A DNA stretch of 64,000 bases from Acidobacteriota bacterium (GCA_002747255.1 PDUC01000036.1:16732-80731); one strand, 5' to 3'; counted from the stretch's first letter, positions 165-17,320 are shown. Notes: generated from the letters alone by a model not told the origin. A program made the numbers and translations.

Positions 165-3065
165 TTAGTTACATACACTGGGTAACAGTATAATTAAGCT
201 TTGTAGCGTGGTGCCCTCTGGCTCTCTCCATTCAGAAGCAAATTCGTGGAACTCACTCCATGAAAGCTGCTCGCCGCTTCTATGCAATTCCATATATCGA
301 ACCGTTCCCTCCTCGTTCGTAACTTTGACATAAAAGGCGTCTGTAAATGCGCCCGTCTGAGTGTTTGAACTCGGAAGTAAATTGATCGGATCCGTTGTGC
401 TGAACTCATCATTGTAAATAGCCTCAATATCATTGTACCATTTGATGGAACTGATTGAATCTATATCGGAAAACTCAAGATAGGCCGTATCACAGCTGCT
501 GACAATTCTACTTTCTACATTGAATAAATTATCCGTCGCGGTAACTTCTTTACTGAGTATTTTCCAATCATTCAAAATCCAGTTGAAGTTGCTGTTTATC
601 GCGACTTCATCGGGGTTTTCGGCAAATATTCTGAGCTCTATCTGGTCGCATGCCGGGAACTGCACCTCTTCTTTGGTCAGGGGATCATCATTGCCATAAC
701 TGGTTGGTTCCGTCCAAACGTGCTCATCGTAGTAGGATAGCAGACTGTTTTGCTGACCGGCATATCCTAAATCGTAAAATGGAAATTGGTTGTAATCAAA
801 GTTACCTAAATTGTCAGGATCCTCGTTGATATTCAACCAGGGGCCTGGAGTCTGATTGTTAATCACACGATACTCCAGGGATCCGCCAAAATTCCAATTG
901 GCATAAAAATGACGAATTTGTTCAATCTCAATGGATAAATGTTGAGAGTAAGCAATGGGATCCGAATACAGATAGTACACAGGAATTCCACTGCTCCTAT
1001 CCGACAACGGAGCCAATTTACATTCATACCGCTGCATTTGAGCATTCCATCTCCATCCGTAAATACCCTCGGGATCAGCTGTTGGGTTGGAAGAGCCTTC
1101 CTGAATAAGAGTAGAAGGAACAACTTTGGGATCGTTATCACTGTATTTGGGTGTCAACTCTTGAAAATCGAGACGGTTAATATACGCGAAATCATGATCC
1201 AAAAAAGAAGGCGCTGTTTGGTTAAACTTTGCTTGCGCTATTTCCTCTTTGAGGTATAGAAGAGACAAAACCCCTTCCTCCATTTTTTCAAACCCGAAAA
1301 GGAGCAGCAAGGGTTCATCATCACGAAAATCATTAAAAGGACGAGCCTTGATAAGTTCGTACATGTAAAGCGTATTGCTTTTCGGCAACCTGATCACAGG
1401 CGTACCGATAAGAGATGCATCGTTTTCCAGAGTTCCCAGATACCCGCCTTCACCAATAATACCTGAAGAATTAGCCAAGCCAGCGAAGTCACTCTCGCTA
1501 AAGACTTTGTGCATTTGGCCATGCATGAGAACATAGGAGTTTTGCGTCGACACATAGCCGTGGTAGTAAAGGCCGGTATCGGCTTGAGCCATGTCAACGG
1601 AAATAACTTCGCCCTGATCAAAGAAGAAGTCCAATTCCTGGTTAGATCCAGGGTTGAGAACTTCCTCTGTCAAAGCCCAGTTAGACAGCTCCATAGGCCT
1701 TTCGAAAACAGCCTCTACACTGGCAAGAGCTTCCAATTCGCTTCCGTTCCCGTATCGGATATTGGCACGCACGGTAATATCAGAAGCATCCACTGTAGCA
1801 ATGCTGAACTCACCGCTCTGTGTCAGATTGAAAGTCGTCGTGAACTCAGCGAGAGAACTGGTGCGAATGCCCCGGTTATCTTCAACTACCCAATCAATTT
1901 CAAAACCGCTCTTCAAGAAGTCTGAAGGTGTATGTAGTTCTGCCTGAATATAAGTCATTCCATCTGTGGCATCTTTTACCCTCAGAGATAGTTTTGCTTC
2001 GTCGAAAGCGGCAACCTCTGCACTGAAAAAATCATCTGCGGAAGCCACATCGCATGAAATACTGGTACCCCTGAAGAGCCTGGCAGATCGAACAATAAAA
2101 CCCTGCCCACTTACGAAATACATCCTGTACGGCCCCCCGGATGAATAATTGAAATCACTCCATAGCGGACCATTGCAAGAACCGGAACCCAGCAGTTCCC
2201 CATCTGTTACTTCGAAAATATTGATACCCGCTCCTTCATCCTCCAAGCTCCCTGCGCCACCGAGTACTGCCTGATCCACTTCAATGGTTTCACCGTCATC
2301 CTGAATAAAGACCGTGCCCTCATATTGAGTTAAATATGCTGATCCTTGATGCGCAAGAATAACTTCGCACTCTGAAGAAATGGGATATCTGAAGTAACTG
2401 ACATTGTTCCAGGGTGAACCAGGAGAGCTGGCATTCCAGTCCAACCACAAAAAGACACGATCACTCGAGGTTAATGTCTCAGCAACAACTGATGTAAGAT
2501 TTTGAGCCTGAGTAAACGCTGAAAAAACTTGAGGCCCTAGATAAAACGACAATTCATCACTTAAAATAACGGAGGTTCCGGGATTTCTTAAAAAGTTGAG
2601 CTGGTCGCTCTGAGGGTCACATTCAAAAGGATCTTCATAACCGACGATGTCCAGAGAAAGTGAAAAATTAAAAATTTCCTGGCCGTTACAAACAGAAGTA
2701 GCACCGGCATTGCAAAAATCACTTCCCGGTATATTTAATACATGTACCGCAAAATCCACTTGTATGGGAACCACCGACGAAGAATTAACAGGTATGGTTT
2801 GCCAACCGGACAAGTTGGTAATGACCACATGCTCATCTGTCAAACATTCGGGAGGTAACAATGTGAACTTGCCAATTCCTGAAGGCCGATTCGTCGAACC
2901 ATCGTAATAAACCTGATACCTGACAAGCTTGGTTTGATTCATGGAAAGGACATCTGCCCCGTCACCATTAAGAATTTGTTTACTATGGACGACAAACCCG
3001 TCAGCAATTGCATTCGCACAAAACAATGGAATAATAATTAATAAAAGTAACAAACGATATTTCAT
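165..3065 (-). CDS. large secreted protein, 966 aa, no domain recognised
   Basis: The ORF track gives 165..3122. I prefer the ATG at 3065. MKYRLLLLLIIIPLFCANAIADG is a Sec signal peptide, GAGGTG lies 5 nt upstream, and a -24/-12 promoter (3091-3106) lies inside the longer ORF. No motif could be assigned by eye. Confidence 0.8.
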   Translation of the reverse strand: MKYRLLLLLIIIPLFCANAIADGFVVHSKQILNGDGADVLSMNQTKLVRYQVYYDGSTNRPSGIGKFTLLPPECLTDEHVVITNLSGWQTIPVNSSSVVPIQVDFAVHVLNIPGSDFCNAGATSVCNGQEIFNFSLSLDIVGYEDPFECDPQSDQLNFLRNPGTSVILSDELSFYLGPQVFSAFTQAQNLTSVVAETLTSSDRVFLWLDWNASSPGSPWNNVSYFRYPISSECEVILAHQGSAYLTQYEGTVFIQDDGETIEVDQAVLGGAGSLEDEGAGINIFEVTDGELLGSGSCNGPLWSDFNYSSGGPYRMYFVSGQGFIVRSARLFRGTSISCDVASADDFFSAEVAAFDEAKLSLRVKDATDGMTYIQAELHTPSDFLKSGFEIDWVVEDNRGIRTSSLAEFTTTFNLTQSGEFSIATVDASDITVRANIRYGNGSELEALASVEAVFERPMELSNWALTEEVLNPGSNQELDFFFDQGEVISVDMAQADTGLYYHGYVSTQNSYVLMHGQMHKVFSESDFAGLANSSGIIGEGGYLGTLENDASLIGTPVIRLPKSNTLYMYELIKARPFNDFRDDEPLLLLFGFEKMEEGVLSLLYLKEEIAQAKFNQTAPSFLDHDFAYINRLDFQELTPKYSDNDPKVVPSTLIQEGSSNPTADPEGIYGWRWNAQMQRYECKLAPLSDRSSGIPVYYLYSDPIAYSQHLSIEIEQIRHFYANWNFGGSLEYRVINNQTPGPWLNINEDPDNLGNFDYNQFPFYDLGYAGQQNSLLSYYDEHVWTEPTSYGNDDPLTKEEVQFPACDQIELRIFAENPDEVAINSNFNWILNDWKILSKEVTATDNLFNVESRIVSSCDTAYLEFSDIDSISSIKWYNDIEAIYNDEFSTTDPINLLPSSNTQTGAFTDAFYVKVTNEEGTVRYMELHRSGEQLSWSEFHEFASEWREPEGTTLQSLIILLPSVCN

Positions 3066-3090
3066 TACACACCTCACTGGGCGAACTGTA

Positions 3091-3106
3091 AGCATGTTTT
3101 GTGCCA
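3091..3106 (-). promoter_or_regulatory. sigma-54 (-24/-12) promoter for the 165..3065 gene
   Basis: The minus strand reads TGGCAC-AAAAC-ATGCT. GG and GC have the canonical 10-nt separation (consensus TGGCAC-N5-TTGCW). It lies about 26 nt upstream of the ATG at 3065. Confidence 0.6.
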
Positions 3107-3236
3107 AAGCAATAATCCGCAAAAACGCACCGTCCAGCTGCTGTGAAACCGAAATTCCGGCTCGAATGCAAAACGCTCTTTTAACATCTCTTTACATTAC
3201 ATCACATAAAATATACATTTAGCTTTTTAAAAACAC

Positions 3237-3284
3237 AAACACGGGTCTGTTGTCTCGTTTCAGCGAGACAACAGACCCGTGTTT
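3237..3284 (-). terminator. strong rho-independent terminator ending the 7683->3305 operon
   Basis: Perfect 21-bp inverted repeat AAACACGGGTCTGTTGTCTCG / CGAGACAACAGACCCGTGTTT with a 6-nt loop. On the minus strand it is followed by GTGTTTTTAAAAAG. It lies 20 nt after the stop at 3305. Confidence 0.8.
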
Positions 3285-3304
3285 GCTTAATCAAAAAAAG
3301 AAAA

Positions 3305-3814
3305 CTAAAAAGGAAGACCCTTTTTATCTATTTTGTGTTCTTTAAACAGCACCCACTTTTCGCCCTCTTTGATCCAGTTTTGTTTTAATGGCATTTGATT
3401 GAATACAAACATACCATGCTGAGCATGTACATGTACCTTTATATTGAAACCGTTATCGTTCTCTTTGGTGGCTTTCTTGATTTCCACCTTTTGTATTTTA
3501 AGTGTCTCTGCCTGCAAATACTCTTTAATCGGAATGTTTTTCCGATAAAGTTCACAGAGCATTTGATAACAGGTAATGAAGTCCTCTTCAATGTAACTGA
3601 TCCAATACTGCTTAACAGCCAAAGCCAACTCACTGTCAATAGCTTCAATCAGGCCAACACCTTTGACGTACTGTTCTTTACTGTCTTTGTCAACCTCAAC
3701 TGGCTTATCATTCCCAGCCACAAGAAGGGAGCTTGCACCAGCAATTAAAATAAATAAAAAAGCCAAACTCAATTTGTTTTTGTTACCAAGCATACTTGCT
3801 CTCCTTTTCTTCAA
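3305..3814 (-). CDS. small secreted protein, unknown function
   Basis: Hydrophobic N-terminus LSLAFLFILIAGASSLLVAG. It overlaps the upstream gene (alternative ATG at 3793). It is the last gene of a four-gene operon. An NTF2-like fold is only a guess. Confidence 0.6.
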   Translation of the reverse strand: MKKRRASMLGNKNKLSLAFLFILIAGASSLLVAGNDKPVEVDKDSKEQYVKGVGLIEAIDSELALAVKQYWISYIEEDFITCYQMLCELYRKNIPIKEYLQAETLKIQKVEIKKATKENDNGFNIKVHVHAQHGMFVFNQMPLKQNWIKEGEKWVLFKEHKIDKKGLPF

Positions 3815-4538
3815 TTAGCTTTTCAAATCGATCCAGACCGTCCAGATATACCTTGCCCCATGAACTGTCTTTAAATTGTAAGCGGTTGTAAATCTTTTTT
3901 AAATGACCGTGCCCAAAGTAAATCCGTAGATAAAGAATCTTGAAAAAAAGTTTCTTTTTTTCAACTTCATCAGTCGTTTCATCTAATTTATCGATTAACA
4001 CCTTTCCCACAGCTTTTTCCAAATCAGAAATCTTGTAAAACAACCCAAGCAATCCGTTAACCTGCATATCATCTGGCCGTTGTATTCTTGAATCAAAAAG
4101 CCTTCCCATTGCCTGATCCCGATAACCGAGATAAAACAAGACAGCACAAGCGCCACAGTATTTTTTGGAGTCATAGTTTTTTGCAACTTCACTTTTAAAT
4201 TTACTCAATTGAGATTGAAGATGTATGTGTCTGTCATGGTATTTTTTTTCCAATTCGCCGTTGTGATACAGGCCCTTGTCTTTCAGTGCTAAATATAAAG
4301 CTTCTGAGTAGACGATATGAGCACAGTCATAGAGGTAATTGAGGACGCTTTCAATTGAATCTGTTTTCCCTTCTGCTAACTCATCAAGTGCATCATAGGA
4401 TAAGTCTGAGAACTTTGTGGCTTCCTTAAGGAGAAGTCGAACCCTGGGATCATTTTCTAACTGTTCTAGCGCCGATTGGTTTGCAGGAAGCAACTGAAAC
4501 CACAATAAAAAAGAGATGATTACACCCGCCCCACTCAT
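3783..4538 (-). CDS. secreted, predicted helical protein, unknown function
   Basis: 251-aa ORF with a signal-like N-terminus (VIISFLLWFQLLPANQSA). Its ATG overlaps the upstream stop (ATGA at 4535-4538), indicating translational coupling. Confidence 0.6.
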   Translation of the reverse strand: MSGAGVIISFLLWFQLLPANQSALEQLENDPRVRLLLKEATKFSDLSYDALDELAEGKTDSIESVLNYLYDCAHIVYSEALYLALKDKGLYHNGELEKKYHDRHIHLQSQLSKFKSEVAKNYDSKKYCGACAVLFYLGYRDQAMGRLFDSRIQRPDDMQVNGLLGLFYKISDLEKAVGKVLIDKLDETTDEVEKKKLFFKILYLRIYFGHGHLKKIYNRLQFKDSSWGKVYLDGLDRFEKLIEEKESKYAW

Positions 4539-5251
4539 TTTTTTTCATCCTTCTTCATGACATATCTCTTTTTCGGCATATAGCCATCTTTTTCGAGATT
4601 CCTCAGTGAATTTTCTATTTCATTGAATACTTTATTGACTTCCTCAAAATCGCCTCTGCTGGAGTACAAAAGTTGCCGTCTATTGTCAATAATGTAATAG
4701 GAATTCATTCCATAGACTTTAAAGGCAGACCTAAAAGAATCGTTATAATCATAATACAAATTTTTAGGAATTTTGATGTTATTAGCTTGAAGCTTTTCTA
4801 GTGTTTTGGAAAAAAGCTCTATGGAATTACCACTTAAATCATAAAAGATACTTATCAGGTTAATACCAGGATGGTCACTGTATCGATTCTGTTCTTCAAT
4901 AAATCGCTGCCAAACTTTATCTCTTTTGATTCCATTGAAGCTCCAATATTGTATCAGCGTCACACGATCGAGCTTTGGAACAACAATCTCTCCCGATTTA
5001 TTCATAAAGCTGAATTGGTCGAAACTGACAGCCGATTCCTCTTTATAGGGAATGATCACTCTCTTCCCAACCTCTTCCATTCCGATAATCTCGCCTTCGG
5101 TTTCTGTTCCGTCAGCGTTTTTTAATTTAACTTTTAATTCGGGTAGCACATTTACATTCTTTTTTTCACTTTGGCCTTTCACCGTAACAGCTGCCAGACC
5201 GCATACTAAAAATAAGGCAACGGCTAAATATCTTAAAAATTTAACACTCAT
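4535..5251 (-). CDS. periplasmic thioredoxin-fold (TlpA/redoxin-like) protein lacking the CxxC motif
   Basis: Signal peptide LAVALFLVCGLAAVTVKG. The pattern TLIQYWSFNGIKRDK ... FKVYGMNSYYIIDNRRQLLYSSRG follows the redoxin layout, but W-S-F-N-G replaces W-C-x-x-C. There is an ATGA overlap with the upstream gene. Confidence 0.45.
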   Translation of the reverse strand: MSVKFLRYLAVALFLVCGLAAVTVKGQSEKKNVNVLPELKVKLKNADGTETEGEIIGMEEVGKRVIIPYKEESAVSFDQFSFMNKSGEIVVPKLDRVTLIQYWSFNGIKRDKVWQRFIEEQNRYSDHPGINLISIFYDLSGNSIELFSKTLEKLQANNIKIPKNLYYDYNDSFRSAFKVYGMNSYYIIDNRRQLLYSSRGDFEEVNKVFNEIENSLRNLEKDGYMPKKRYVMKKDEKK

Positions 5252-7683
5252 TTAATTAACTCCATAACATCATACGTCCTTGTCTTGTTTTTTGCAATTA
5301 TACTTTCGTCCAGTTTCAAATAGGGTAAAGGGCTCTTAGATACATATTTCCGATCCGCGTTATGCCTTGTTTTGTAGTATTGCACATAGACTTCCTCCGG
5401 CATTTTGACCATGAAGTGCGAAATATTGGCCAGGTCACCCTCGACTATTCCGTTTTCTAAAATTTGACTCATTGAAAAAACACCTGACGAGTATGCAGCC
5501 AACGGATTTCCAAGCTCCGTATTAAACCTGCCAAGTCGGTTGCCGTTTGAGTCATATGCCGAAAAAAGGACGTGTTGAAAGCGATTTGTGCGATTAATCA
5601 CCTCAAAACTGCCATTTTCCTGGAAAGGCCAGACCGAACACTCCTTCATATCAATTAATTTACTGATAAAAAAGTCTCCCGATACGATCGATTCGTTATA
5701 GGAGGCATGGACTTCGATACCTACAATTGGATACTGACTGAACATATTTAGGTAATCCCCTTGTTCAGGTTGATAACCGTCCAGCAAATTCAAGGCCAGG
5801 TTCAGGTGTTTTTGTCTTGGTTCCAGAAAAAATGAGCCTTTTGTCTTTTCGTATCCATTTTTGTCGATGACTTTGTACATAATTTGATTTTCTACCTCAG
5901 ATGTATTGACAATCGCCAATCCGTTCCACCCTGTTTCGGCAGAATAAATTTGCGAAACGTAAAACTCACCAAAACACTCTCGGTAGTCATTGAGAGCGTA
6001 AGAAATGACCTGATTAAGGCCGGTTTGATAGAATTCCACTTCACTTTGAAACTTTCTGCCATCTACTTCTCTAAGTGAGAACCAATAGCCCACAGGTGGC
6101 AGAGTCTTGTTGACAAAGGTGGAAACAGGATAAACACCTACCCCGCCTTCCACAAAAAACCTTTCTTTTCTTACCTCATCTCCGTCTTTATCGTAGATAG
6201 TTAACTCAAAGTTCATTATCGGCGTGTCACCGTGAATTCGCAACTCCGTCTCCCAGCCGTAAAGGTGGGCAATATGGGGGAAATATCTCGTTGTACTATT
6301 TTGTAACTCTCTAGAATAATAGGGTGTTGTAGCTTCGTCTTCCAAGCCGTAGAACTGCACAATTGTGGAATCAAAATAGGGCTTACAACCCTCGACAACC
6401 ACTTCTTTCGTACTAATCGAGCCAAACGGAGCCAGTGTGGATGTTTTTTCGCCATTTTGATATGGGATAGACTTTTCTGAAAAATTGACAACTACACCCA
6501 TTCTTTCGTCCTGCAAGTACATACTGTTGTCCGGCAGACGTACGATATAGAAGCTGGGTTCTGCACTTCCACTGGTAAGGTGAAGCACATATTCACCGTC
6601 AACCAGATCAGAAGAAGCAATTTCCGTATTTCCTTCGCCGTTTAACAAAACTTCTCCTGTAGTTGGATTGAGAAGCTCCCAGACCACACTGGATCCTGAA
6701 TAATTCACCAGTTCAACAGATTCCGGCAGGCCACCTACGACCCGAAATGAATAATAATCAGCATCGCCATCACGGGTACAACCAAGTGTAATTTGATTTT
6801 TCAACTGGAATGCTTGACTTATTTCACCATTGGGCTCCTGGTAATCAACATTGGAATACACATCCTCAGAAGACGCATCCATGAAGGCTTTTACATTTTC
6901 ATAAGTAAGGAATCTGTTACTGTGTAGATCCCAACGACTTATAAAATAAGGAACCCCGGGAAGCCAGGCGAATTCGGGATATGTATCGCTCACCCATTCA
7001 TATTCATCGTCGCCTGAAATAGTGTACTTCACATCAACAATGTAGAAAGGAACCAGTGTTAATTCCAGCTGGGCAGACATCGACATTGGCAAAGTCAAAA
7101 TGAGTTTGACGGTAACAAGCTGATTCCCATTGCCATCGGAACCTCTGGACATCGCATATCCTGACACTGGATAGTTCCATTTTTCATCACCATTACCCAT
7201 ATCTAATATGATGTTATTCCCTCTCATCAGGAAAGTCTCAACAATGGAATTAAAACCCCTGGCTGTGAGCCCACCTGCACCGAAAGGTATGATGTTGTCA
7301 TCGGATCGGGTGACTGATAGCAGTGCTCTCATTTCCGGTTGCATCAATTTCATACCATTGGTAACAACTGCTTCTGGATCATCAAAAAGAATTGAAGCGG
7401 CTGCCCAGCCATCACAGTTTCCATACCAGTGAGGCGCTGTTGCATCAACTAAATATCTCTCCTCGTAATCACAGGCATTGGGTGAGAGACCCATAAGTCC
7501 TGTCATACTGAGTTTTGCAAGAGGACCTGGATAACCAAAAAAGCCCTCGCCCTTAACCATGATATTCTCTGATAAAGGCAACCAATCGCCTGTCCACGCA
7601 ATTTTGTCAAAATAGATGTCTTGACTGAAAACGCCCAGAGTCGAAAAAAGAAACAACACAGCTATCTTATAATCTTTTGTCAT
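5248..7683 (-). CDS. 811-aa secreted protein: N-terminal GP42-like (transglutaminase-elicitor-like) Cys domain plus repeated beta-sandwich-like modules
   Basis: GGAGG Shine-Dalgarno and a signal peptide IAVLFLFSTLGVFSQ. Motif HWYGNCDGWAAAS (Cys90, nt 7414-7416). KWNYPVSGY (nt 7156-7179) resembles the Pep-13 core WNQPVRGF. The C-terminal half carries three modules of the type W-x-[TG]-x-h-x-h-x-N ... YD-x-[DN]-G. Confidence 0.75.
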   Translation of the reverse strand: MTKDYKIAVLFLFSTLGVFSQDIYFDKIAWTGDWLPLSENIMVKGEGFFGYPGPLAKLSMTGLMGLSPNACDYEERYLVDATAPHWYGNCDGWAAASILFDDPEAVVTNGMKLMQPEMRALLSVTRSDDNIIPFGAGGLTARGFNSIVETFLMRGNNIILDMGNGDEKWNYPVSGYAMSRGSDGNGNQLVTVKLILTLPMSMSAQLELTLVPFYIVDVKYTISGDDEYEWVSDTYPEFAWLPGVPYFISRWDLHSNRFLTYENVKAFMDASSEDVYSNVDYQEPNGEISQAFQLKNQITLGCTRDGDADYYSFRVVGGLPESVELVNYSGSSVVWELLNPTTGEVLLNGEGNTEIASSDLVDGEYVLHLTSGSAEPSFYIVRLPDNSMYLQDERMGVVVNFSEKSIPYQNGEKTSTLAPFGSISTKEVVVEGCKPYFDSTIVQFYGLEDEATTPYYSRELQNSTTRYFPHIAHLYGWETELRIHGDTPIMNFELTIYDKDGDEVRKERFFVEGGVGVYPVSTFVNKTLPPVGYWFSLREVDGRKFQSEVEFYQTGLNQVISYALNDYRECFGEFYVSQIYSAETGWNGLAIVNTSEVENQIMYKVIDKNGYEKTKGSFFLEPRQKHLNLALNLLDGYQPEQGDYLNMFSQYPIVGIEVHASYNESIVSGDFFISKLIDMKECSVWPFQENGSFEVINRTNRFQHVLFSAYDSNGNRLGRFNTELGNPLAAYSSGVFSMSQILENGIVEGDLANISHFMVKMPEEVYVQYYKTRHNADRKYVSKSPLPYLKLDESIIAKNKTRTYDVMELIK

Positions 7684-8054
7684 TTTGTTACCTCCATCTT
7701 TTTTGTCATTACTATTTCATTCAGCAAGAATCATGCAAACATCTTGATAGTCTGGCATATAAATTGTTTCGGCCATTTAAATAGTACTGGATCATTTGCC
7801 GTATTCACCCGCTCTAAAACCCTGTTAACGGTAGATGCATTCGTCAAGAAAACAGAAATCTTTCATTGTTGATTGTAATAGTTGCAGCCTTTTTTTGACT
7901 CCACCCCATTTACCATACCGAATCACACAACATCTGGAACTTGTTTGATTCTATCTTCTACAACTTGCACTCATTCGCACATTTTTCATCCAGAAATGAT
8001 CATTTCCTCAAAACATCTTCACGCAATAAAACTCAACCGGGTCAAAAAAAGCTT

Positions 8055-8092
8055 GGGCCTTCCATTTCATGTTTTCACTCAATGGAAGGCCC
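8055..8092 (-). terminator. rho-independent (bidirectional-looking) terminator after the 8151..10238 gene
   Basis: 12-bp stem GGGCCTTCCATT / AATGGAAGGCCC with a 14-nt loop. It is flanked by an A-run (8044-8050) and a T-run (8093-8098), so a T-tract follows the hairpin on both strands. Confidence 0.8.
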
Positions 8093-8150
8093 TTTTTTCA
8101 TCCTATTTTTTCAAAAGAAAAACTAAGACTTGTTTAAAAGAATCATCAAA

Positions 8151-10238
8151 TTAATTTAATGACTTCCTTTTGGCTACAAGCATTTTGCTCATGTCAAAGA
8201 TGGCTTGTTCAGATTTAGGATCAGCTTTGCCTGTTACTGTAGGCATGTCATTACCACCTGAATCAGGTCCAATGTTACGGGCAAGATAGCTGCCATTGAT
8301 GCTGGTATCTCTACCAATCAGACAGTATCCGTCAAGGTCGCCATCTCTACTGCCAGTTGTCAGGTAAGAACCGGTTACGAACAGGTTCCATCTAACCTCA
8401 CCAAAGACAAGGTCATTACCGGAAGTTTGAGGCTGCAAGAACAATCCTTCTGTGGGATCACCTTGTACACCGTAGAAGCCTACACCAGCTTCGTCTTCAG
8501 TTACCAACCAAGTTTGCATGGTTTGTCTTGGTAATGCGGGGAATTCAACTTCCCAATGATTACCGTCCGCTTCATAAGCGCTACCTACGAGACCACCGTC
8601 AGCTGGGAAGTCTTTTCCGCCGTGGTTGACCAGAGCAATACCGGTCCAGAAGTCTGTTCCCTGTAATTTAGGCAGGTAAGGGAAGAAGATGGAAGTTCTA
8701 ACAGTATATTCGCAAGGCAAGAATGCACCGAAATCCCATACATCGTTAAGTGCCAATGAATAGCTGGGAGGACAATAGTCGTTTGCGAACCAGTAGTTGG
8801 CCTGATCAGCAAGAGTGTCGACGACTGCGCCTGAGCAAGTACCAAATGCGGGGAAACCATTTTCCCAACGAGAGTCTTTGTCAGCTGCCCATACAGCCAG
8901 ACCAACTTGTACAGGGCCAGGCTCGTCAGCGTAGTATTGACCAACTTCCATGTTTACAATGATTGTGTTGGCCTGACTCATGGAACCAGGACCTTGGTAC
9001 CACAATACTAAGTCATCAGTAAAGTAGTATCCACCCATGTTTTTGGGAGTACCCAGGAACCACTGATCAGTAGTAACGCCAGTATTCACATAGTAAGATG
9101 CAGAAGGAATGCTTCTGGGTCGATATACAGGAGCACCGTTAGGAAGATAGAATGCCAACAACTGATTGATTGTTTCATCATTAGCTGTATCTACCTGAAG
9201 TGGGAAGCCCCAAGGACCTTCATTTGCATTGTAAAAATAGATGTAAGAATTGTTATGCCAGCCTTCGCTGCAGTTAACGCGGATATTAAGTCTGTTTTCC
9301 ATTAAAACTAAACCGTTGTCATCAACACCCTGACCACCAGCATCAAGACAAAGTCTTGCAAATTTGCGGCTAGGCTTGTAGATAGATCCAGTGCAGTCAC
9401 CTTGAACACCCCTGGCAATGCTATCGTCACCAGAGTAGTTGGTAGGTATCTGATTACCTTTGTCAATTGTTACACCGGGCATGGCAGTGAATACACCAAA
9501 GTCGCCGTTCCACGCAGTATCTTTGTACGAAATGGTATCAAACTTAAGAGTGGATTCGGGATTAGGATAGTAATCCAGAACAGATTCTTCCAGGTTGACA
9601 CAAATCAGGGTAGAAATTGCGGGATAGTTGGGATCACAACCAGCAGGCACTGTGTAGCTTGAGTCCCTTGTGTTGGCAGGCAGGTTGGAGCTTACACTGG
9701 CGTTCGCCTGTACCGACTTGGCAGCAGTGACACCGAAAGTCCATGCAACACGACCGTTGGACAGTGAAGGAGCAACGACAGCTTGCTGAGAAGTACTGAA
9801 AATCCAAGTGTCACTGGCACTCTGAACTCGCAGCCAGATATACTGTTCACCAGCGATCCAGCGAACGATGGATACAGTTTCAGGATGAGCAGCAATAGTA
9901 TTGTTACCAGTAGCACCAGCGTCTTCAAGTCTCACTGCCAGATAAATAGGTTCTCCATAAAAGCCAGCGACTTGTGTGCCCTGACCATCGTATGTAGCCC
10001 AATTACCAACCAGGTTGCCGCAGAGAACCGCGTCATGAGTAAGACGGACACGGATGTATGTAGGATCTTGGGTTGTAGCGTCGGCAAAGTCATTACCGTT
10101 AACAGACATGGTAATTGAACCAGCTTCCTCGCATGAACCTCTGTAGTAAAGGTCCTGAATGTTTGTCCTGAGATCAACGTTTGCAAATGTAGTAAATGCA
10201 ACGGCTGATAGCGCCAGGATACCAAAAATTTTTTTCAT
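8151..10238 (-). CDS. 695-aa secreted protein, candidate abundant surface/structural protein, no domain recognised
   Basis: Signal peptide MKKIFGILALSAVAFTTFANV and a GGAGG Shine-Dalgarno 8 nt upstream. The gene is monocistronic, between its own sigma-54 promoter and a strong terminator. The composition is rich in Gly/Thr/Asn/aromatic residues. Confidence 0.85.
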   Translation of the reverse strand: MKKIFGILALSAVAFTTFANVDLRTNIQDLYYRGSCEEAGSITMSVNGNDFADATTQDPTYIRVRLTHDAVLCGNLVGNWATYDGQGTQVAGFYGEPIYLAVRLEDAGATGNNTIAAHPETVSIVRWIAGEQYIWLRVQSASDTWIFSTSQQAVVAPSLSNGRVAWTFGVTAAKSVQANASVSSNLPANTRDSSYTVPAGCDPNYPAISTLICVNLEESVLDYYPNPESTLKFDTISYKDTAWNGDFGVFTAMPGVTIDKGNQIPTNYSGDDSIARGVQGDCTGSIYKPSRKFARLCLDAGGQGVDDNGLVLMENRLNIRVNCSEGWHNNSYIYFYNANEGPWGFPLQVDTANDETINQLLAFYLPNGAPVYRPRSIPSASYYVNTGVTTDQWFLGTPKNMGGYYFTDDLVLWYQGPGSMSQANTIIVNMEVGQYYADEPGPVQVGLAVWAADKDSRWENGFPAFGTCSGAVVDTLADQANYWFANDYCPPSYSLALNDVWDFGAFLPCEYTVRTSIFFPYLPKLQGTDFWTGIALVNHGGKDFPADGGLVGSAYEADGNHWEVEFPALPRQTMQTWLVTEDEAGVGFYGVQGDPTEGLFLQPQTSGNDLVFGEVRWNLFVTGSYLTTGSRDGDLDGYCLIGRDTSINGSYLARNIGPDSGGNDMPTVTGKADPKSEQAIFDMSKMLVAKRKSLN

Positions 10239-10357
10239 TTGTAAAAACCTCCAAAGATTTTTATTAAGTTATTTTTTCCAACCGGATTCAGATTTACGCC
10301 CACCATTTATGATATTAATGCAAGTCACAGCCCTTAGGCGAGACGCACCCGTTACTA

Positions 10358-10373
10358 TGCAATCAACGTGCCA
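10358..10373 (-). promoter_or_regulatory. sigma-54 (-24/-12) promoter for the 8151..10238 gene
   Basis: The minus strand reads TGGCAC-GTTGA-TTGCA, a perfect match to TGGCAC-N5-TTGCW. It implies a 5' UTR of about 100 nt. Confidence 0.75.
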
Positions 10374-10459
10374 ACTCACGCAAGTATGTATATCATAATA
10401 TAACTACAATTTAGCTGACATAGTTGTTTTTATAAACGAGGAAACAACCCCTGCACAGA

Positions 10460-10478
10460 TGTCTCCACTCAAGAGACA
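10460..10478. promoter_or_regulatory. candidate enhancer (UAS) inverted repeat TGTCTC-N7-GAGACA
   Basis: Perfect 6+6 inverted repeat about 90-105 bp upstream of the sigma-54 promoter at 10358-10373. The same half-sites recur at 17302-17320 and 3251-3270. Confidence 0.35.
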
Positions 10479-10569
10479 GTATCGGCATGTTTACCAATTT
10501 CAAATGATCTCAGGACTGTTTGAAGCAATATTTTTCAAAATACCAGGCTACTGATGATAAAATATCTCA

Positions 10570-11841
10570 ATGAAGCAGTTTATCTTTTTCTCCATTCTCT
10601 TGACAGGGCATATTTTATTTGCGCAAACAGATGAAACCATATTTAGAGAGTTTCGCTTTGACTTCACCACACCTGGCGCTCGAGCCAACGCCCTTGGAAA
10701 AGCTTTTGTTGGCCTATCCGATGAGGCCACCTCAGCCTACAACAACCCCGCTGGCCTATCCGTCCTGGAACACCCTGAAATCACCCTGGAGTATCAATCC
10801 AACAAGATCCAATATGCTTTTCTTCAAAACACTGATTCATTTGAGCTTATCAATGGTGATATTCTCCACCCTGAAATCCATACCAATCGCTGCAGTTTTG
10901 CCTCCATAAGCTTTAGTAAGTATAACACTAACTTTTCCCTTTTTTACGTCAATCAGCTTCAGTATTCACGTGAACTGCCCGAGGAGATAAGCACCTGGTA
11001 TCATATCGATATTGGTTACAACTTCTTTTATGGCAACCAGCATCGGGTTCAACTCGATATTTCCACTTACGGGCTCAGCTTTGGTCGTGCTTTTTCCCGG
11101 CTTTCTTTTGGTGCCGCCATTGGCCTCTCACAGCTCGATATACGTTATAAATACAGTACGCGGCTCATATCATACGACCTTGAGCTCGACCAGCTAGTTT
11201 TAAGTGAAACCAACCACAATCTTTCGGAATTTTCCTGTGTTTTAGGCATGACGTACCAAATTCATCCAAAAATAAGAATTGGAGCATCTTATAAGAGCCT
11301 TCCATCTTACAAATACAGTGAAAAGGTTCAAACACTGCAGGATCCTGAATATCATTCCGTGCCGATCCGATTTAAAGTTCCCGATTCGCTTGCTATCGGT
11401 TTGAGTTGTCTGCCAACAGACAGGATCACCATTGTGCTGGATTTTAACAGAATATGGTATCACCAGTTAGCCGGTGACAACTTCACCGTTATCTCCGGTG
11501 ATGAATACACCAAAGAAAATTACATCACTCCCGATGCGACTGAAAAACACATTGGCATTGAGTACCTTCTCCCCTGGCGCAAGCACATCTTTGCATTCCG
11601 TTGCGGGGCTTATGAAAATCCCGACCACAAAACGCGCTTCACGGCCTCAACATCTACGTTCGCTTCAGACATACAGGCCTTCGTCTTTAACACTGGCAGC
11701 CAGAAAACCATGACGGCCTACACTATCGGGCTGGGATATGTCTGGAAGAACAAACTGCAAACAGATATGGCATTGGTACATGAAGGAGATCAATTTCACT
11801 CCTTCATCACCTCTTTCTTATACAGATTTGGGAAAAAATGA
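10570..11841 (+). CDS. outer-membrane beta-barrel protein (FadL/PorV-like family)
   Basis: Signal peptide MKQFIFFSILLTGHILFAQT. The N-terminal motif GARANALGKAFVGLSDEATSAYNNPAGLS is characteristic of FadL/PorV-type barrels. The rest of the protein shows alternating amphipathic strands. Confidence 0.7.
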   Translation: MKQFIFFSILLTGHILFAQTDETIFREFRFDFTTPGARANALGKAFVGLSDEATSAYNNPAGLSVLEHPEITLEYQSNKIQYAFLQNTDSFELINGDILHPEIHTNRCSFASISFSKYNTNFSLFYVNQLQYSRELPEEISTWYHIDIGYNFFYGNQHRVQLDISTYGLSFGRAFSRLSFGAAIGLSQLDIRYKYSTRLISYDLELDQLVLSETNHNLSEFSCVLGMTYQIHPKIRIGASYKSLPSYKYSEKVQTLQDPEYHSVPIRFKVPDSLAIGLSCLPTDRITIVLDFNRIWYHQLAGDNFTVISGDEYTKENYITPDATEKHIGIEYLLPWRKHIFAFRCGAYENPDHKTRFTASTSTFASDIQAFVFNTGSQKTMTAYTIGLGYVWKNKLQTDMALVHEGDQFHSFITSFLYRFGKK

Positions 11842-13997
11842 TGAAGAACAGCAAGTTCATTGGCATCCTCTTGGTTCTTTTTCTGTTGTCTCACATCTTT
11901 TTGCTGGCAGATGACCGTTTTTTAGACAGCTATAAAAAAGGTTGTGAAGCCATGAACATGCAGGAATACAGCCAGGCCATTGCGTACTTTGAAAGCGCAA
12001 TAGCTGAGGAACCAGTATCATCCAACAAGGTGAGAGACTACGGTGTGCAGTTTGTCTCCTATCATCCCTACACTTACTTAGTTGAAGCCTATCTCATGTG
12101 GCAGGGACCTGACCACCTGGAAAAGGCACGACAGTATGCCGATTTGGCTGTTCGCTACAAAGAAGACGACCCCGAAAAGTTCCAAGAATTAAAAGCCAAA
12201 GTAACCCGCCTCAGGAGAATCGTCGACTCACAAATTCAGGCCAACACCCAGCAGGAAAAACCCAGCATTCCGTTAGATACTGTCAACCTGCTTATATCTC
12301 AAGGCCAGTTTCATGAAGCGCTGGACCAAATCAATCTCCTCATACACTCTTTTCCGGATGAAGCCATTCTTAAAAGCACCAAGCACCTTCTCAGGGAACT
12401 GATCCTCAAAACAACTACCGCTGAGAAATCTGAACAGGCACATAAAAAGAACCTTGACGAGTTTTTACTCAAAGCGAGGCAAAGCATTTCAGTTGACAAT
12501 CAGGAAACAGCTTATTTGTACTATTTATATGTAGACGTTCTCGATCCGGGCAACGAAGAAGCTGCTTTGTTTATTGAAAAGTTCAAGCAGAACCTTGCCG
12601 ATCAGGGAAAAACCCAGGAAGAAATCGCCTTGGAGTTAACCTCCTACAAAACAGAAAATCAGGATCTTCTCAATAGGTTGACTGAACTGGCGGATAAAAA
12701 TAAAAAGATTAGAAATGAGCTTGAAGTCCTTCAAAATCAGATGTCACAGATGGAATCTGCAACTCAGCCCGTCACGCCCCAAGTTGAAGTTACCTGGGAC
12801 CCCAAACCAGTCAAAGATGAAGAAAGAGAATATCATTTGAGCGCCACTATCAACAGTAACATTCCCATCGAGAGTGTTAAATTCTTCAGCAATGGCGTGC
12901 TGATTAAAACATGGGAAAATATTGGCAAGTCTCATTTCAAAATGCCCACTATTCAGAATTTCAGTTTTCTCAACTACCAGAACCGGCTGCGCCTGGAAAT
13001 AAGAGATATCAGGGGGAATATACACAACGATGAAATTCCATTAAACATCCCTCAGTCTACCAACAAATTCTTCCAGCACTTCCCGAAAGCATTTGTAGTT
13101 TTTGTTCTATTTACTGTTTCCTACGTTTATATGTCGAGACAACGCAAGAAAAGACAGGCTTTCAGGGAGCGGTTCAACCCCTATGTAGCGGGTGCACCTG
13201 TCTTTTCAAGCTCCATGTTTTATGGAAGACACGACCTTTTGAAACAAATATTAAACACTCTGCATAATAATTCCATGATGATCTGCGGTGAACGAAGGAT
13301 AGGTAAAACGACTTTGATGCATCGCCTGCATTCGGTGCTTCCGGCTTTGGATGATCCAGAGTATCAGTTCTATCCCGTCATGATTGACTTACAGGGGATG
13401 GTAGAAGAGGATTTTTTCGCCAGTATGGACCACGAAATCATTGACTCACTGGCAGAAACAGGTATCAAGCTGCCAGAATACTGGGAAGGCACCATGAATG
13501 TTCGTGTTTTCACCAAGCGAATACGACAGATCATCAGTGAACTCAAGTCCCATTCCGATCGTTCACCAAAACTCGTGCTCTTGTTGGATGAAGTCGATAT
13601 TATGAACAGCTTTTCTGAAAAGACCAACCAGCAGTTGCGTTCCGTTTTCATGAAGGGGTTTGCTAAACATCTAGTAGCTGTTATGGCAGGCATTCACTTA
13701 AAGAAGCGATGGGACAGTGAGGGGAGCCCATGGTACAACTTCTTTGAGCAGATAGAATTGCAGCCATTTACTAACAGACACGCCAAAGCTTTGATCGAAA
13801 ACCCGGTTAAGGGTATTTACAGCTACAGCGACGAGGCTGAAGATCGCATACTGGAGTTAAGCAACCTAAAACCCTACGTTATTCAACGTCTTTGCGTCAA
13901 TCTCATTGCAACTATTCTGTCTGAAAACAGGCGCCGTGTGACTCGCAAGGATGTCGATCGTGTTTTTGAGTCCATCCAGAAGGAGAAAGAGCAATGA
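11838..13997 (+). CDS. bitopic membrane protein: periplasmic TPR + coiled coil + beta domain, one TM, cytoplasmic P-loop ATPase (Arch_ATPase/ATPase_2-like)
   Basis: ATGA overlap with the OMP gene. N-terminal anchor FIGILLVLFLLSHIFLLA and a TPR-like segment YSQAIAYFESAIAEEP. A long heptad-rich segment is followed by a TM, FPKAFVVFVLFTVSYVYMS (about nt 13081-13140), and then RQRKKRQ. NPYVAGAPV...FYGR...GERRIGKTTL is Walker A (nt 13287-13313) and LVLLLDEVD is Walker B. Confidence 0.75.
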   Translation: MMKNSKFIGILLVLFLLSHIFLLADDRFLDSYKKGCEAMNMQEYSQAIAYFESAIAEEPVSSNKVRDYGVQFVSYHPYTYLVEAYLMWQGPDHLEKARQYADLAVRYKEDDPEKFQELKAKVTRLRRIVDSQIQANTQQEKPSIPLDTVNLLISQGQFHEALDQINLLIHSFPDEAILKSTKHLLRELILKTTTAEKSEQAHKKNLDEFLLKARQSISVDNQETAYLYYLYVDVLDPGNEEAALFIEKFKQNLADQGKTQEEIALELTSYKTENQDLLNRLTELADKNKKIRNELEVLQNQMSQMESATQPVTPQVEVTWDPKPVKDEEREYHLSATINSNIPIESVKFFSNGVLIKTWENIGKSHFKMPTIQNFSFLNYQNRLRLEIRDIRGNIHNDEIPLNIPQSTNKFFQHFPKAFVVFVLFTVSYVYMSRQRKKRQAFRERFNPYVAGAPVFSSSMFYGRHDLLKQILNTLHNNSMMICGERRIGKTTLMHRLHSVLPALDDPEYQFYPVMIDLQGMVEEDFFASMDHEIIDSLAETGIKLPEYWEGTMNVRVFTKRIRQIISELKSHSDRSPKLVLLLDEVDIMNSFSEKTNQQLRSVFMKGFAKHLVAVMAGIHLKKRWDSEGSPWYNFFEQIELQPFTNRHAKALIENPVKGIYSYSDEAEDRILELSNLKPYVIQRLCVNLIATILSENRRRVTRKDVDRVFESIQKEKEQ

Positions 13998-15418
13998 GGA
14001 ATCCCTTTTCTGCAGGAAGCTGGGTATCCGGTAAGGGCTTTATCGGCCGGGAAGAAATCATGCAGCGGCTCATCTATTCAAATGAAAATTGTGATTGGGT
14101 ACAGGCACAGCGGAGAATGGGAAAAACCTCCTTACTCAGACAGCTGGAAGAAAAAATCAACAAAGGACAGATCGAATCCGCGTCCATCAGGACCACTTTG
14201 GCCGTGTTTTGGGATATCCAGGGAAGTTATGACGCCAGCGGACTCCTTGAAAGTCTTGAGGACGCGCTGGACGACAGTTACGATCTGTTCCCCCAATCAT
14301 GGCATGACATGGACCCCTCGGATTTTCAGGCCGATCACCCCCATCAGACCATAAAAAATCTCACCAGACAGCTTAGAAAAAAAGCTATGGGCTTAACACT
14401 TCTCATCGATGAAGCGGAAGAGTTGATGACCTTGAATGAAAAAAATCCTGAAACTCTGGCACGACTGAGAAAAGTGTTTCACACCTCATCCAACATTCAT
14501 ACGATCATTTGTTCCACTCCACGTCTTGAAAACTTGAGACAACATCAAGCTATTGAAACATCGCCCTTTCTCCACGGATTTCAGGTCCACTACTTGAGTA
14601 CATTCAATAGAAAAGAAACACAGCAATTACTCGATATGGGTAATATCCCAGCCGATATCGGAGAAAGGATATACCAGCTCACACACGGTAATCCCTATCA
14701 AATACAATTATTTGCAAAGTACTTTTTTGAGAACAGAGATTTCGAGGAAACAAGCTTGTTCATGCAAAGCAATCCGTCTCTTTCCCAGGTACACGATGTC
14801 AACCTCGGCTTGCTCACCGAAAGAGAGCAAGAGATCCTATCAAAGTTCACCATGGATCACCTTCAATCACCCCCGTCAGAAAGTAACCAGTTGATCTTTA
14901 AGAAACTCATTAGATTGGGTTACTTATCGGGAAATGAAAAATCCCCCAGCATTGCATCGGATCTTTTCCACAAATGGCTAAAGCGGTATTTCAGTCAAAA
15001 TCTCAACCTTCATCCAAAAGACCTGAAGGACATGCCACTCAGCGAAGCAAGCAGCAAGATAGTTCGTGAGAACATTCTCAATTTGTACCAGTATCTGCTG
15101 CAAAAAATGCAACAGGGATACCGGCTGAATGTCCATGCGGGACACTTCAACGTATCCAGCATGGATAAAAAAGCCTATCCCACTCATGAAGCCTCTGAGC
15201 AGAAAGCAATAGCTCCCAACTTGAATACCCCTCTCTGGTCTCTGGCACTACAAGATCTCATCATTCTCACTCAGGAATTATTTGATTTCAAGAAACACTG
15301 GTCCTGCTTCCGCTTGATGGAATTAGCAAATAATCTGGGCAACACTACAGAAGAAGAAATTCTTGATCTTATGAATCTGATTAGAGAAGAAGCCCGGCTG
15401 GAATCGGAAAAGATCTGA
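13994..15418 (+). CDS. soluble P-loop ATPase of the same (Arch_ATPase/STAND-like) type with a helical C-terminal region
   Basis: ATGA overlap with the upstream gene. NPFSAGSWVSGKGFIGRE...AQRRMGKTSLLRQL is Walker A (nt 14104-14130) and LTLLIDEAEEL is Walker B. No TM segment is present. Confidence 0.7.
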   Translation: MRNPFSAGSWVSGKGFIGREEIMQRLIYSNENCDWVQAQRRMGKTSLLRQLEEKINKGQIESASIRTTLAVFWDIQGSYDASGLLESLEDALDDSYDLFPQSWHDMDPSDFQADHPHQTIKNLTRQLRKKAMGLTLLIDEAEELMTLNEKNPETLARLRKVFHTSSNIHTIICSTPRLENLRQHQAIETSPFLHGFQVHYLSTFNRKETQQLLDMGNIPADIGERIYQLTHGNPYQIQLFAKYFFENRDFEETSLFMQSNPSLSQVHDVNLGLLTEREQEILSKFTMDHLQSPPSESNQLIFKKLIRLGYLSGNEKSPSIASDLFHKWLKRYFSQNLNLHPKDLKDMPLSEASSKIVRENILNLYQYLLQKMQQGYRLNVHAGHFNVSSMDKKAYPTHEASEQKAIAPNLNTPLWSLALQDLIILTQELFDFKKHWSCFRLMELANNLGNTTEEEILDLMNLIREEARLESEKI

Positions 15419-15525
15419 TTCATATCAGAATCTTTGCATCATCGTCTGCGTTATCACATGGAAAGGATTAGACGTGTTTCAGCTATTATTAATCTTTAAA
15501 GAAGCTAAATGAAAAAGGAAGGGCG

Positions 15526-17007
15526 TTACTCTGTTTCCTCTAATTTGACATTTTGAATGGGTAGGGAAATGAGAGCGATATCGGAATCATTTTTACCAAG
15601 CATGGTTGATGTGAAGGAACCCTCGATGCTGCTGATCACAAAATAAAAAGTCTTTGCGGTATCTTCTTTAAACAGGTCTGCCAAAGCAGTTTCATCAATA
15701 GACCAGGCTTCAGAAGGACTTAATTCTCTTTTGTTGTAACCTGCGACCCTTCCATCTTCAGCCAGGATAGACAATCGAACAACGATGGGCGTTTTCTCTG
15801 TATTTTGAATGTACAGAGTTCTGCTGACCATGCTCTGACCTGTCAGCCAGAAGCTGGAGTAGTTGCCTGCCTGTTGAATATTCACAGCGCCCAAGGAAGA
15901 CCTGTTATCGGTGGCATAATGAAGACCGTGGACAGTGTATTCTGCCAGTTGTTCCTGGTCTTCAAGTTCTTCGTCCACTTCAGGAAGGATAATTTGAAAT
16001 TGAATTCTCAAAGGAATTTTTCCATCAGTTGCGTAAATCTCATTAAACCAGGTTGAACCAACAACACCAGAGATTCTTGTATTTGGAGGAAGCTTTAGTT
16101 CAATAGAATCCTCTTTGACATCAAAGCCACTCTCATCATCTCCGCTGAGAAACATCTCGGTATAGACCAGGGTGAGATTCATGTGAATTTCATGGTTGTG
16201 AGGGTTGGTAAATGTCGCCCAATGACTTGTATTTTCCATAAATGGCAGAAGCGGCAGGGATCCATTTTGTAAAACCTTGGTATTCAACTCAAAGGCACAA
16301 GTCTGTTTGGATTCGTCTACCTTTGAAAAGGTTTGATAGCCCACCAGTTGAAACTCTGGATTCTGACACAGAACCTCGCCCCAAAAAGCCGCAACAGGGT
16401 TATCCAAATCTCCCAGGAACACATCGAAGTACGGTGTTTTTTTCAAAAAGCCGGCGTGATTCAAACCCGACCACAATTCGGTTTCCTGCGGAAGCCCGTC
16501 CACGTCATAAAATCTGAAATCCAAATTGGATTGCATGGAATCACCGATCCCCACAACGGAGAAACTCGATTTCCAGGTGAAGTAATTGGTTCCTATTTGC
16601 GGAATGACCACTCGATTGCCGTGATTCAAGTGAAGCGAAACGCCGTTTAATTGGCCCGTCTCTGTGTTGTGGATCCACATGAAACCTTCCAGTGGCACAT
16701 CTGACCGGAAGATGAGCGACTGCACCGCCGCAAGTGATTCCCTGTGATCGAAAGGAGAGAAAGAAAAACCGCCACTTCCATTGATGATTACATCGTCGAA
16801 TTTGACTATTTCCCTGCCAAGGAAACTGTAACCTCTGATGTCTATTCGATGTTCACCTTCACCCTGAACGCCCGCTTCGATGAGGTATTGCCATTCCCCG
16901 CTAAATGTTTTCTCTGGCAAAGGTACAAAGCTGATGTACTCGGGACTATCATCTGTAAGTCCTGCCATACCTAACAATAAAACTAATAATAGTAACGTTT
17001 TTTTCAT
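15526..17007 (-). CDS. 493-aa secreted protein, no known domain, shares beta-sandwich-like modules with the 5248 and 8151 proteins
   Basis: The ORF track gives 15526..17064. I prefer the ATG at 17007 (MKKTLLLLVLLLGMAGL is a signal peptide), because a -24/-12 promoter lies at 17046-17061 inside the longer ORF. Confidence 0.75.
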   Translation of the reverse strand: MKKTLLLLVLLLGMAGLTDDSPEYISFVPLPEKTFSGEWQYLIEAGVQGEGEHRIDIRGYSFLGREIVKFDDVIINGSGGFSFSPFDHRESLAAVQSLIFRSDVPLEGFMWIHNTETGQLNGVSLHLNHGNRVVIPQIGTNYFTWKSSFSVVGIGDSMQSNLDFRFYDVDGLPQETELWSGLNHAGFLKKTPYFDVFLGDLDNPVAAFWGEVLCQNPEFQLVGYQTFSKVDESKQTCAFELNTKVLQNGSLPLLPFMENTSHWATFTNPHNHEIHMNLTLVYTEMFLSGDDESGFDVKEDSIELKLPPNTRISGVVGSTWFNEIYATDGKIPLRIQFQIILPEVDEELEDQEQLAEYTVHGLHYATDNRSSLGAVNIQQAGNYSSFWLTGQSMVSRTLYIQNTEKTPIVVRLSILAEDGRVAGYNKRELSPSEAWSIDETALADLFKEDTAKTFYFVISSIEGSFTSTMLGKNDSDIALISLPIQNVKLEETE

Positions 17008-17045
17008 ATTTGTTTCCGATCGATCAAATCCGACACACTCAATGA

Positions 17046-17061
17046 AGCAATATGCTTGCCA
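17046..17061 (-). promoter_or_regulatory. sigma-54 (-24/-12) promoter for the 15526..17007 gene
   Basis: The minus strand reads TGGCAA-GCATA-TTGCT with canonical GG/GC spacing. It lies about 39 nt upstream of the ATG at 17007. Confidence 0.7.
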
Positions 17062-17301
17062 CAACTGCCAGAGACAACTTCAACGCGACCCTAACCCTTG
17101 TTTACAAACAACTTAAAGAGCACGCTCACCCAAGACTCATGTCTTTTCTCGTTCAACAATTCATACTCTTTTACACAACCATTCTTGAACCCTTTATTTC
17201 ATAAACAGCTTTTTCAAGATATGGAGTGATTTAAGATCCCTACATCAACATATTGTGTGGGTAACTTGCCTTTTCAATGAATAAACACGCTCGCAAGATG
17301 C

Positions 17302-17320
17302 CGTCTCTGCTCTGGAGACA
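17302..17320. promoter_or_regulatory. candidate enhancer (UAS) inverted repeat CGTCTC-N7-GAGACA
   Basis: 11 of 12 positions match the 10460-10478 repeat, with the same 7-nt spacer. It lies about 240 bp upstream of the sigma-54 promoter at 17046-17061. An extra GAGACA half-site is at 17071-17076. Confidence 0.3.

Follow-up and report, generated by a model that had tools for sequence, protein, structure and literature searches.

Three putative sigma-54 promoters, a candidate enhancer and a neighbouring activator gene in a secreted-protein gene cluster of the Acanthopleuribacteraceae

Enhancer-dependent sigma-54 promoters that are served by a dedicated activator encoded next to its targets are known from the systems NtrC-glnAp2, PspF-pspA and ZraR-zraP. 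The subject of the present analysis is a locus of an uncultured member of the Acanthopleuribacteraceae (Acidobacteriota, Holophagae), where a stretch of 64,000 nucleotides (nt) of one contig (GCA_002747255.1, PDUC01000036.1:16732-80731, corresponding to C41:16732-80731 in our own contig numbering and further called the window) carries three -24/-12 elements on its minus strand, each in front of a gene for a large secreted protein (g1, g2, and g3), as well as a gene for an enhancer-binding protein. It is quite likely that all three elements are functional sigma-54 promoters of one cluster that is conserved in the family, with those of g2 and g3 being driven by the neighbouring activator via a palindrome. 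Like the systems mentioned, the locus has promoters with a GG-N10-GC core, an inverted repeat located ~70-250 nt further upstream, and, beside the targets, an AAA+ activator with a GAFTGA motif and a C-terminal Fis-type helix-turn-helix (HTH). Unlike in these systems, the activator lacks a receiver domain and any recognised sensor domain and is encoded by a gene in translational coupling with ruvAB, and the targets are family-specific secreted proteins without known domains.

The palindrome also invites comparison with the NifA-type upstream activating sequence, which reads TGT-N10-ACA. Both have an outer TGT and ACA and lie upstream of a -24/-12 promoter. However, the half-sites found here, TGTCTC and GAGACA, are six bases long, and 13 nt separate the outer TGT from the outer ACA. 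Unlike NifA, the activator gave no match to a GAF domain, and the domain search matched its N-terminal ~190 amino acids (aa) to no family.

Francke et al. (2011, PMC3162934) described sigma-54 as a controller of the bacterial exterior. The present locus fits this theme in that exported or surface proteins are encoded by its target genes, and sites of the sigma-54 type precede flagellar and type VI secretion system (T6SS) genes in this genome. However, the functions in that survey were mostly the synthesis and transport of precursors, flagella, exopolysaccharides, and lipopolysaccharides, and not orphan secreted β-sandwich proteins. Acidobacteria are not mentioned in the survey, and a comparative-genomics paper on the family (PMC8841776) mentions neither sigma factors nor the cluster. 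The locus appears to be a well-documented new instance of the classical mechanism, with a defined candidate enhancer, and would add to the view that sigma-54 governs exported and surface functions also in the Acidobacteria.

Promoter elements and gene starts

The features that make up the proposed regulon are the following; the transcription start sites are predicted from the positions of the elements.

3091..3106, minus strand: site 1, TGGCACAAAACATGCT (read from 3106 to 3091), putative sigma-54 promoter of g1; predicted start ~3080, leader ~15 nt including a GAGG ribosome-binding site
10358..10373, minus strand: site 2, TGGCACGTTGATTGCA (read from 10373 to 10358), putative sigma-54 promoter of g2; predicted start ~10347, leader ~109 nt
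17046..17061, minus strand: site 3, TGGCAAGCATATTGCT (read from 17061 to 17046), putative sigma-54 promoter of g3; predicted start ~17035, leader ~28 nt
165..3065, minus strand: g1, secreted protein of 966 aa, near-orphan, with a terminator hairpin at 84-114
8151..10238, minus strand: g2, secreted, cysteine-containing, all-β multi-domain protein of 695 aa (homology search and AlphaFold 2 model)
8044..8092, minus strand: intrinsic terminator of g2, a 12-bp GC-rich stem followed by T7 (direct reading of the sequence)
15526..17007, minus strand: g3, secreted protein of 493 aa, single copy and family-restricted (homology searches)
17348..18985, minus strand: enhancer-binding protein of 545 aa, directly upstream of site 3 (Pfam Sigma54_activat, 9e-71; HTH_8)

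The three 16-mers had been pointed out in a preliminary description of this DNA, and direct reading of the window bore out their positions and sequences as well as the GG-N10-GC spacing in each of them. The description was loosely worded where it counted 13-16 matching positions: the consensus TGGCAC-N5-TTGCW specifies 11 positions, 10, 11, and 10 of which are matched by sites 1, 2, and 3, respectively. From the last base of the 16-mer to the ATG (at 3065, 10238, and 17007), 26, 120, and 39 nt were measured, in agreement with the range of 26-120 nt given earlier. That these ATGs begin signal peptides, as was also proposed, is plausible considering the hydrophobic N-termini MKYRLLLLLIIIPLFCANAIA (g1), MKKIFGILALSAVAFTTFA (g2), and MKKTLLLLVLLLGMAG (g3). 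Two of the sites had been placed inside longer open reading frames (ORFs). These are sites 1 and 3, which lie within the longest ORFs, 165..3122 and 15526..17064, because those ORFs run to upstream TTG start codons. Only the TTG-extended versions are overlapped, and a correct orientation and a short distance to the gene start are found at all three sites. Alignments of orthologs of g3 and g2 begin at the ATG or within a few residues of it. Therefore, the shorter gene models, which the preliminary description favoured too, are preferred, and two gene starts are corrected. Both g1 and g2 would be monocistronic, as each is preceded by a putative promoter of its own and followed by an intrinsic terminator (84-114 for g1, 8044-8092 for g2).

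A genome-wide scan with an RpoN position weight matrix, the check suggested for these sites, was performed on the entire genome (3.50 Mb in 96 contigs). With an approximate matrix of our own, sites 2, 3, and 1 ranked 1st, 10th, and 14th among ~7 million positions, with scores of 19.1 bits, the best of the genome, 16.3 bits, and 15.5 bits, respectively. When only promoter-positioned sites were considered, the ranks were 1st, 7th, and 9th. Three of the top 14 sites, where 0.06 would be expected, are thus located within 14 kb of a 3.5-Mb genome. High-scoring sites were often promoter-positioned, i.e., 10 of the 22 sites of at least 15 bits (binomial p = 2e-5) and 29 of the 79 of at least 14 bits (p = 2e-10), as compared with a background of 9.9% among weak sites. 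Other top promoter-positioned matches were found before fliL and flgD, a flagellar rod gene, two hcp genes of the T6SS, and a gene for a MoxR ATPase. As sigma-54 is well known to control flagellar and hcp genes in other bacteria, the matrix detects real sites in this genome. Over-representation of the motif was considered as evidence and rejected, as neither the Markov nor the shuffle nulls were exceeded; the window has 16 matches with at most one mismatch, against 11.5 ± 3.3 in shuffled sequences. What is non-random is the position and the context of the sites, not the frequency of the motif.

Conservation of the cluster and the candidate enhancer

The locus was compared with those in nine related genomes, including those of Acanthopleuribacter pedis and Sulfidibacter corallicola, and with a near-conspecific metagenome contig, L047. 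The order of the cluster is ruvA-ruvB-activator-g3, followed on the opposite strand by genes for an AAA ATPase (AAA474), a TPR/AAA ATPase, and a PorV/FadL-like outer membrane protein (OMP), and then by g2 and the gene for an 811-aa protein (o811). From ruvA to o811, it is collinear in seven of the nine relatives; L036 shows it from g3 onward, and the short contig of L034 covers the g2 side only. Identities of the cluster proteins to those of the relatives are 22-69%, with RuvB as the highest and the cluster-specific proteins at 22-47%. The genes o238 and o169 are found downstream in some relatives as well. Searches in other Holophagae families did not find orthologs of g2 or g3 and gave weak, partial matches only. 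The family, throughout which the cluster is present, consists of marine Acidobacteria associated with animals, and since it includes the cultured A. pedis and S. corallicola, the predictions made here can be tested at the bench.

The DNA upstream of g2 and g3 was aligned between ten genomes, i.e., our own and the nine relatives. Before g2, the invariant positions in all ten are the GGC and the GC of the -24/-12 block and four scattered single columns; before g3, the GG and the TTGC are the sole invariant columns. The GG-N10-GC block stands at the same place before g2 in the nine relatives and in L047. In A. pedis (L033) and S. corallicola (L035), which have the same architecture, the -24/-12 elements read TGGCGCGGTACCTGCT and TGGCAGGGGATTTGCA, and TGGCACGTAACATGCT and TGGCTTGCGAATTGCA, respectively.

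The comparison with L047 is informative, as the two DNAs are 94.5% identical from the right side of the cluster to the OMP gene, whilst identity collapses past that gene. The proteins follow the same course, with these identities to L047:

RuvB: 100%
activator: 99%
g3: 96%
AAA474: 98%
TPR/AAA ATPase: 92.5%
OMP: 76%
g2: 43%
811-aa protein: 26%

Site 3 is identical in L047. The DNA upstream of g2 is mostly unalignable, yet it contains a perfect copy of the palindrome described below and has kept the TGGCA and the TTGC of site 2, with a changed spacer between them. Such a pattern, in which the elements are kept and their surroundings diverge, is what would be expected of a promoter and an enhancer under selection. 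The divergence of the exported parts (OMP, g2, and o811), as opposed to identities of 96-100% for g3, the activator, and RuvB, suggests allelic replacement or diversifying selection. The drop in identity extends over 3305-10554 of the window as compared with L047:16448-21482. Within this segment, the predicted leader of g2 (10239-10347, minus strand) has diverged far less from L047 than has the DNA next to the promoter. RNAalifold revealed no base pairs in this leader that are conserved across the family, and a search of positions 1-21000 of the window against Rfam gave no match.

The palindrome and its variants near the three sites are the following:

10460..10478: TGTCTC-N7-GAGACA, a perfect palindrome with its centre 97 nt upstream of the GG of site 2, for which it is the candidate enhancer
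17302..17320: CGTCTCTGCTCTGGAGACA, a copy with one mismatch, ~240 nt upstream of the -24 element of site 3, for which it is the candidate enhancer
3238..3283, minus strand: terminator of the 7683..3305 operon, a hairpin with a 20-bp stem followed by a T-run; its core at 3251-3270 is TGTCTC-N8-GAGACA

The copy at 10460-10478 is the only exact one in the genome, where 0.2 would be expected, and in each of the nine relatives, a copy that deviates at no more than two positions lies 72-91 nt upstream of the g2 promoter. When up to one mismatch is allowed, the genome has three intergenic copies, among which the one at 17302-17320, in the gap between the activator gene and site 3; this copy is perfect in L047. 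Most relatives also have a copy upstream of the g3 promoter, either at 47-57 nt or at 259-335 nt. The activator gene, the palindrome, and the promoters occur together in every genome in which the locus extends far enough. These observations define a likely binding motif of the activator. The core of the terminator at 3251-3270, which has the same half-sites, may serve as an enhancer for site 1 as well, or the resemblance may be a coincidence.

The machinery for the use of such promoters is encoded in the genome: RpoN is encoded by one intact ORF of 479 aa with Sigma54_AID, CBD, and DBD domains, and there are genes for ~11 genuine enhancer-binding proteins. The activator encoded at 17348..18985 has a Walker A motif and a GAFTGA loop, both read from its translation, as well as an AAA lid and a C-terminal HTH_8 domain. 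In an AlphaFold model (predicted local distance difference test score, pLDDT, of 70), its N-terminal domain consists of a helical segment, a sheet of 5-6 strands, and then a helix. The HTH region is highly conserved among orthologs, which is consistent with a shared recognition sequence without proving one. In the GAFTGA loop, variants were seen: it reads GAFTNA in A. pedis and in one metagenome-assembled genome (MAG) and GSFTGA in another MAG (the orthologs from L032 and L033 are among these), and such variants might affect the contact with sigma-54. The start codon of the activator gene overlaps the stop codon of ruvB, and L047 and all but two of the nine named relatives keep the order ruvA-ruvB-activator (17348-20554 in the window), the loci of these two stopping short of it. 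Therefore, the activator is probably co-transcribed with the genes for the Holliday-junction helicase, an odd pairing.

At site 1, the comparison had to follow another route. A search of 5.8e9 proteins by shared words returned g1 alone. Site 1 itself is located in the ~170 nt that separate a strong terminator from the ATG, ~130 nt downstream of the terminator. In L036, L037, and L034, the 811-aa operon is followed by a gene for a secreted protein of 921-953 aa. The proteins of L036 and L037 are 21-26% identical to g1 over collinear segments, whilst the L034 protein is homologous to these two and has no direct match to g1. Each of the three genes is preceded by a -24/-12 site of 15-17 bits located just upstream, and the g1-like gene of a fourth relative has a site upstream as well. 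Thus, site 1 is probably functional, with comparative support that is weaker than that for sites 2 and 3 but positive.

A proposed mechanism and its alternatives

The preliminary description proposed three RpoN-type promoters before genes for secreted proteins, and its proposal is supported by the presence of rpoN and of an adjacent activator gene, the ranks in the genome, the other targets of the matrix, and the conservation in orthologs. In the mechanism that we consider quite likely, RpoN holoenzyme would bind the GG-N10-GC elements and form closed complexes. The activator, which would be produced from the ruvAB transcript, would bind TGTCTC-N7-GAGACA upstream of g2 and g3, and its N-terminal domain, which we infer to sense a signal, would allow ATP to be used to open the promoters. 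As a result, separate single-gene transcripts for large secreted proteins would be switched on. Site 1 might share the activator through the N8 palindrome in the upstream terminator, which is the weakest step of the scheme.

Several observations weigh against this mechanism. The position weight matrix is our own approximation of the published -24/-12 consensus, and 15 sites of at least 15.5 bits were observed in the genome, against 26 ± 6.5 in first-order Markov genomes. Between genomes, the distance from the enhancer to the promoter of g3 ranges from 47 to 335 nt, and the binding of the palindrome by the activator is predicted from their adjacency and co-conservation. At site 1, an A takes the place of T at -15 (ATGC at the -12 element), the palindrome is spaced by 8 nt instead of 7 and lies within a terminator hairpin, and nothing convincing in the way of an enhancer palindrome was found before the g1-like genes of the relatives, so that an enhancer role there is uncertain. 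If the counts of the motif in the window and in the genome, which were judged to be at or below random expectation, were all there was to go by, the three sites could be chance matches to a short degenerate motif without any promoter function. This is very improbable, however, as exactly these bases are kept in ten genomes amid diverged DNA, the three sites cluster beside an activator gene with the correct orientation and spacing to the start codon, and strong sites are enriched at promoter positions genome-wide.

A chance match or a non-functional element is more readily conceivable for site 1 alone, with sites 2 and 3 being real and g1 being transcribed from another promoter. Site 1 is the weakest of the three, Markov genomes yield ~26 sites of its strength, g1 is without close orthologs for footprinting, and the upstream region has no N7 palindrome, its N8 version belonging to the terminator. 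Still, we consider this rather improbable: the site has the right orientation in the short gap between terminator and ATG, the leader includes a ribosome-binding site, no better sigma-70-like match was found in this gap, and three distant positional equivalents of g1 have strong -24/-12 sites in the same place. The promoters could also all be real and the assignment of the activator be wrong, i.e., some other regulator would bind the palindrome, or another of the ~11 true activators encoded in the genome would act on the promoters. A distance of 47-57 nt between enhancer and promoter of g3, as in some relatives, is indeed unusually close for looping. This possibility is nevertheless quite unlikely, as the palindrome is essentially confined to this cluster within the genome and co-occurs with the activator gene and the promoters wherever the locus reaches far enough, and the high conservation of the HTH of the activator is in line with that of the half-sites. 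The preferred explanation remains that of three functional promoters, with the neighbouring activator acting on those of g2 and g3 and perhaps on that of g1. It provides a cluster of hypothetical genes of 20 kb with a regulatory map on which three promoters, a single enhancer motif, and a candidate activator are placed.

Secreted products and surrounding genes

The products of g1, g2, and g3 had no match in searches of Pfam, NCBIfam, PADLOC, and PDB sequences, and paralogy of the three proteins to each other was considered but not found. For g2, 33 homologs were found, all of them unnamed or "hypothetical" and from Acidobacteria or metagenomes only. Its AlphaFold 2 model (pLDDT 77) shows stacked β-sandwiches, for which Foldseek returned matches with low template-modelling scores (0.1-0.3) to Ig-like adhesin and pilin domains. 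An assignment of g2 as a surface protein of the S-layer or adhesin type is not supported, as no domain or anchoring signal was recognised and the resemblance is that of a generic β-sandwich. The first ~280 aa of g2 form a domain that is found in many paralogs, often in tandem arrays, in relatives with large genomes (up to 20 matches per genome); the present 3.5-Mb genome has two matches only. In the 811-aa protein, a short segment matches the transglutaminase-elicitor family above the Pfam threshold, and the OMP has weak PorV/PorQ and FadL-like matches. Models of defence systems gave one faint match and nothing more.

The regulon is most economically read as serving a regulated function of the cell surface or envelope. 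More tentatively, and with considerable doubt, the promoters, the enhancer, and the ruvAB-coupled activator could form the circuit that controls a cell-envelope system which is as yet undescribed and confined to the Acanthopleuribacteraceae. Such a speculative system might comprise the PorV/FadL-like outer-membrane barrel, two ATPases (a P-loop ATPase with TPRs and a STAND-like one), a secreted protein with a transglutaminase-elicitor-like domain, and the three large, secreted β-rich proteins. Between near-identical strains, the outward-facing parts (OMP, g2, and o811) appear to be swapped or to diversify fast, whilst the regulatory DNA is kept. The system might, for instance, build a protein coat that is inducible, cross-linked, and antigenically variable. 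Among the products, g2 and o811 stand out as strain-variable secreted proteins that are predicted to be under tight, inducible control.

One further element lies before the operon that starts at 7683:

7723..7738, minus strand: TTGCATGATTCTTGCT, a degenerate -24/-12-like element upstream of the 811-aa gene, 39 nt from its ATG

No equivalent of the three sites had been reported before this operon. This holds in so far as there is no proper site, but it overlooks TTGCATGATTCTTGCT, which is one base off, as a T replaces the first G of the invariant GG. The element resembles a copy that has decayed or is very weak. At the corresponding position before the 811-aa gene, sites of 11-17 bits are present in L029, L037, L036, and L030, and several relatives also have a strong site before the next gene.

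Outside the window, ~2 kb to its left, a divergent pair of sigma-54-like elements, TGGAACGTATCTTGCT (C41:14596-14611, minus strand) and TGGCCTGGAATTTGCT (C41:14830-14845, plus strand), precedes two small genes. No TGTCTC palindrome was found between these two elements. A second activator gene is located at C41:4569-5072.

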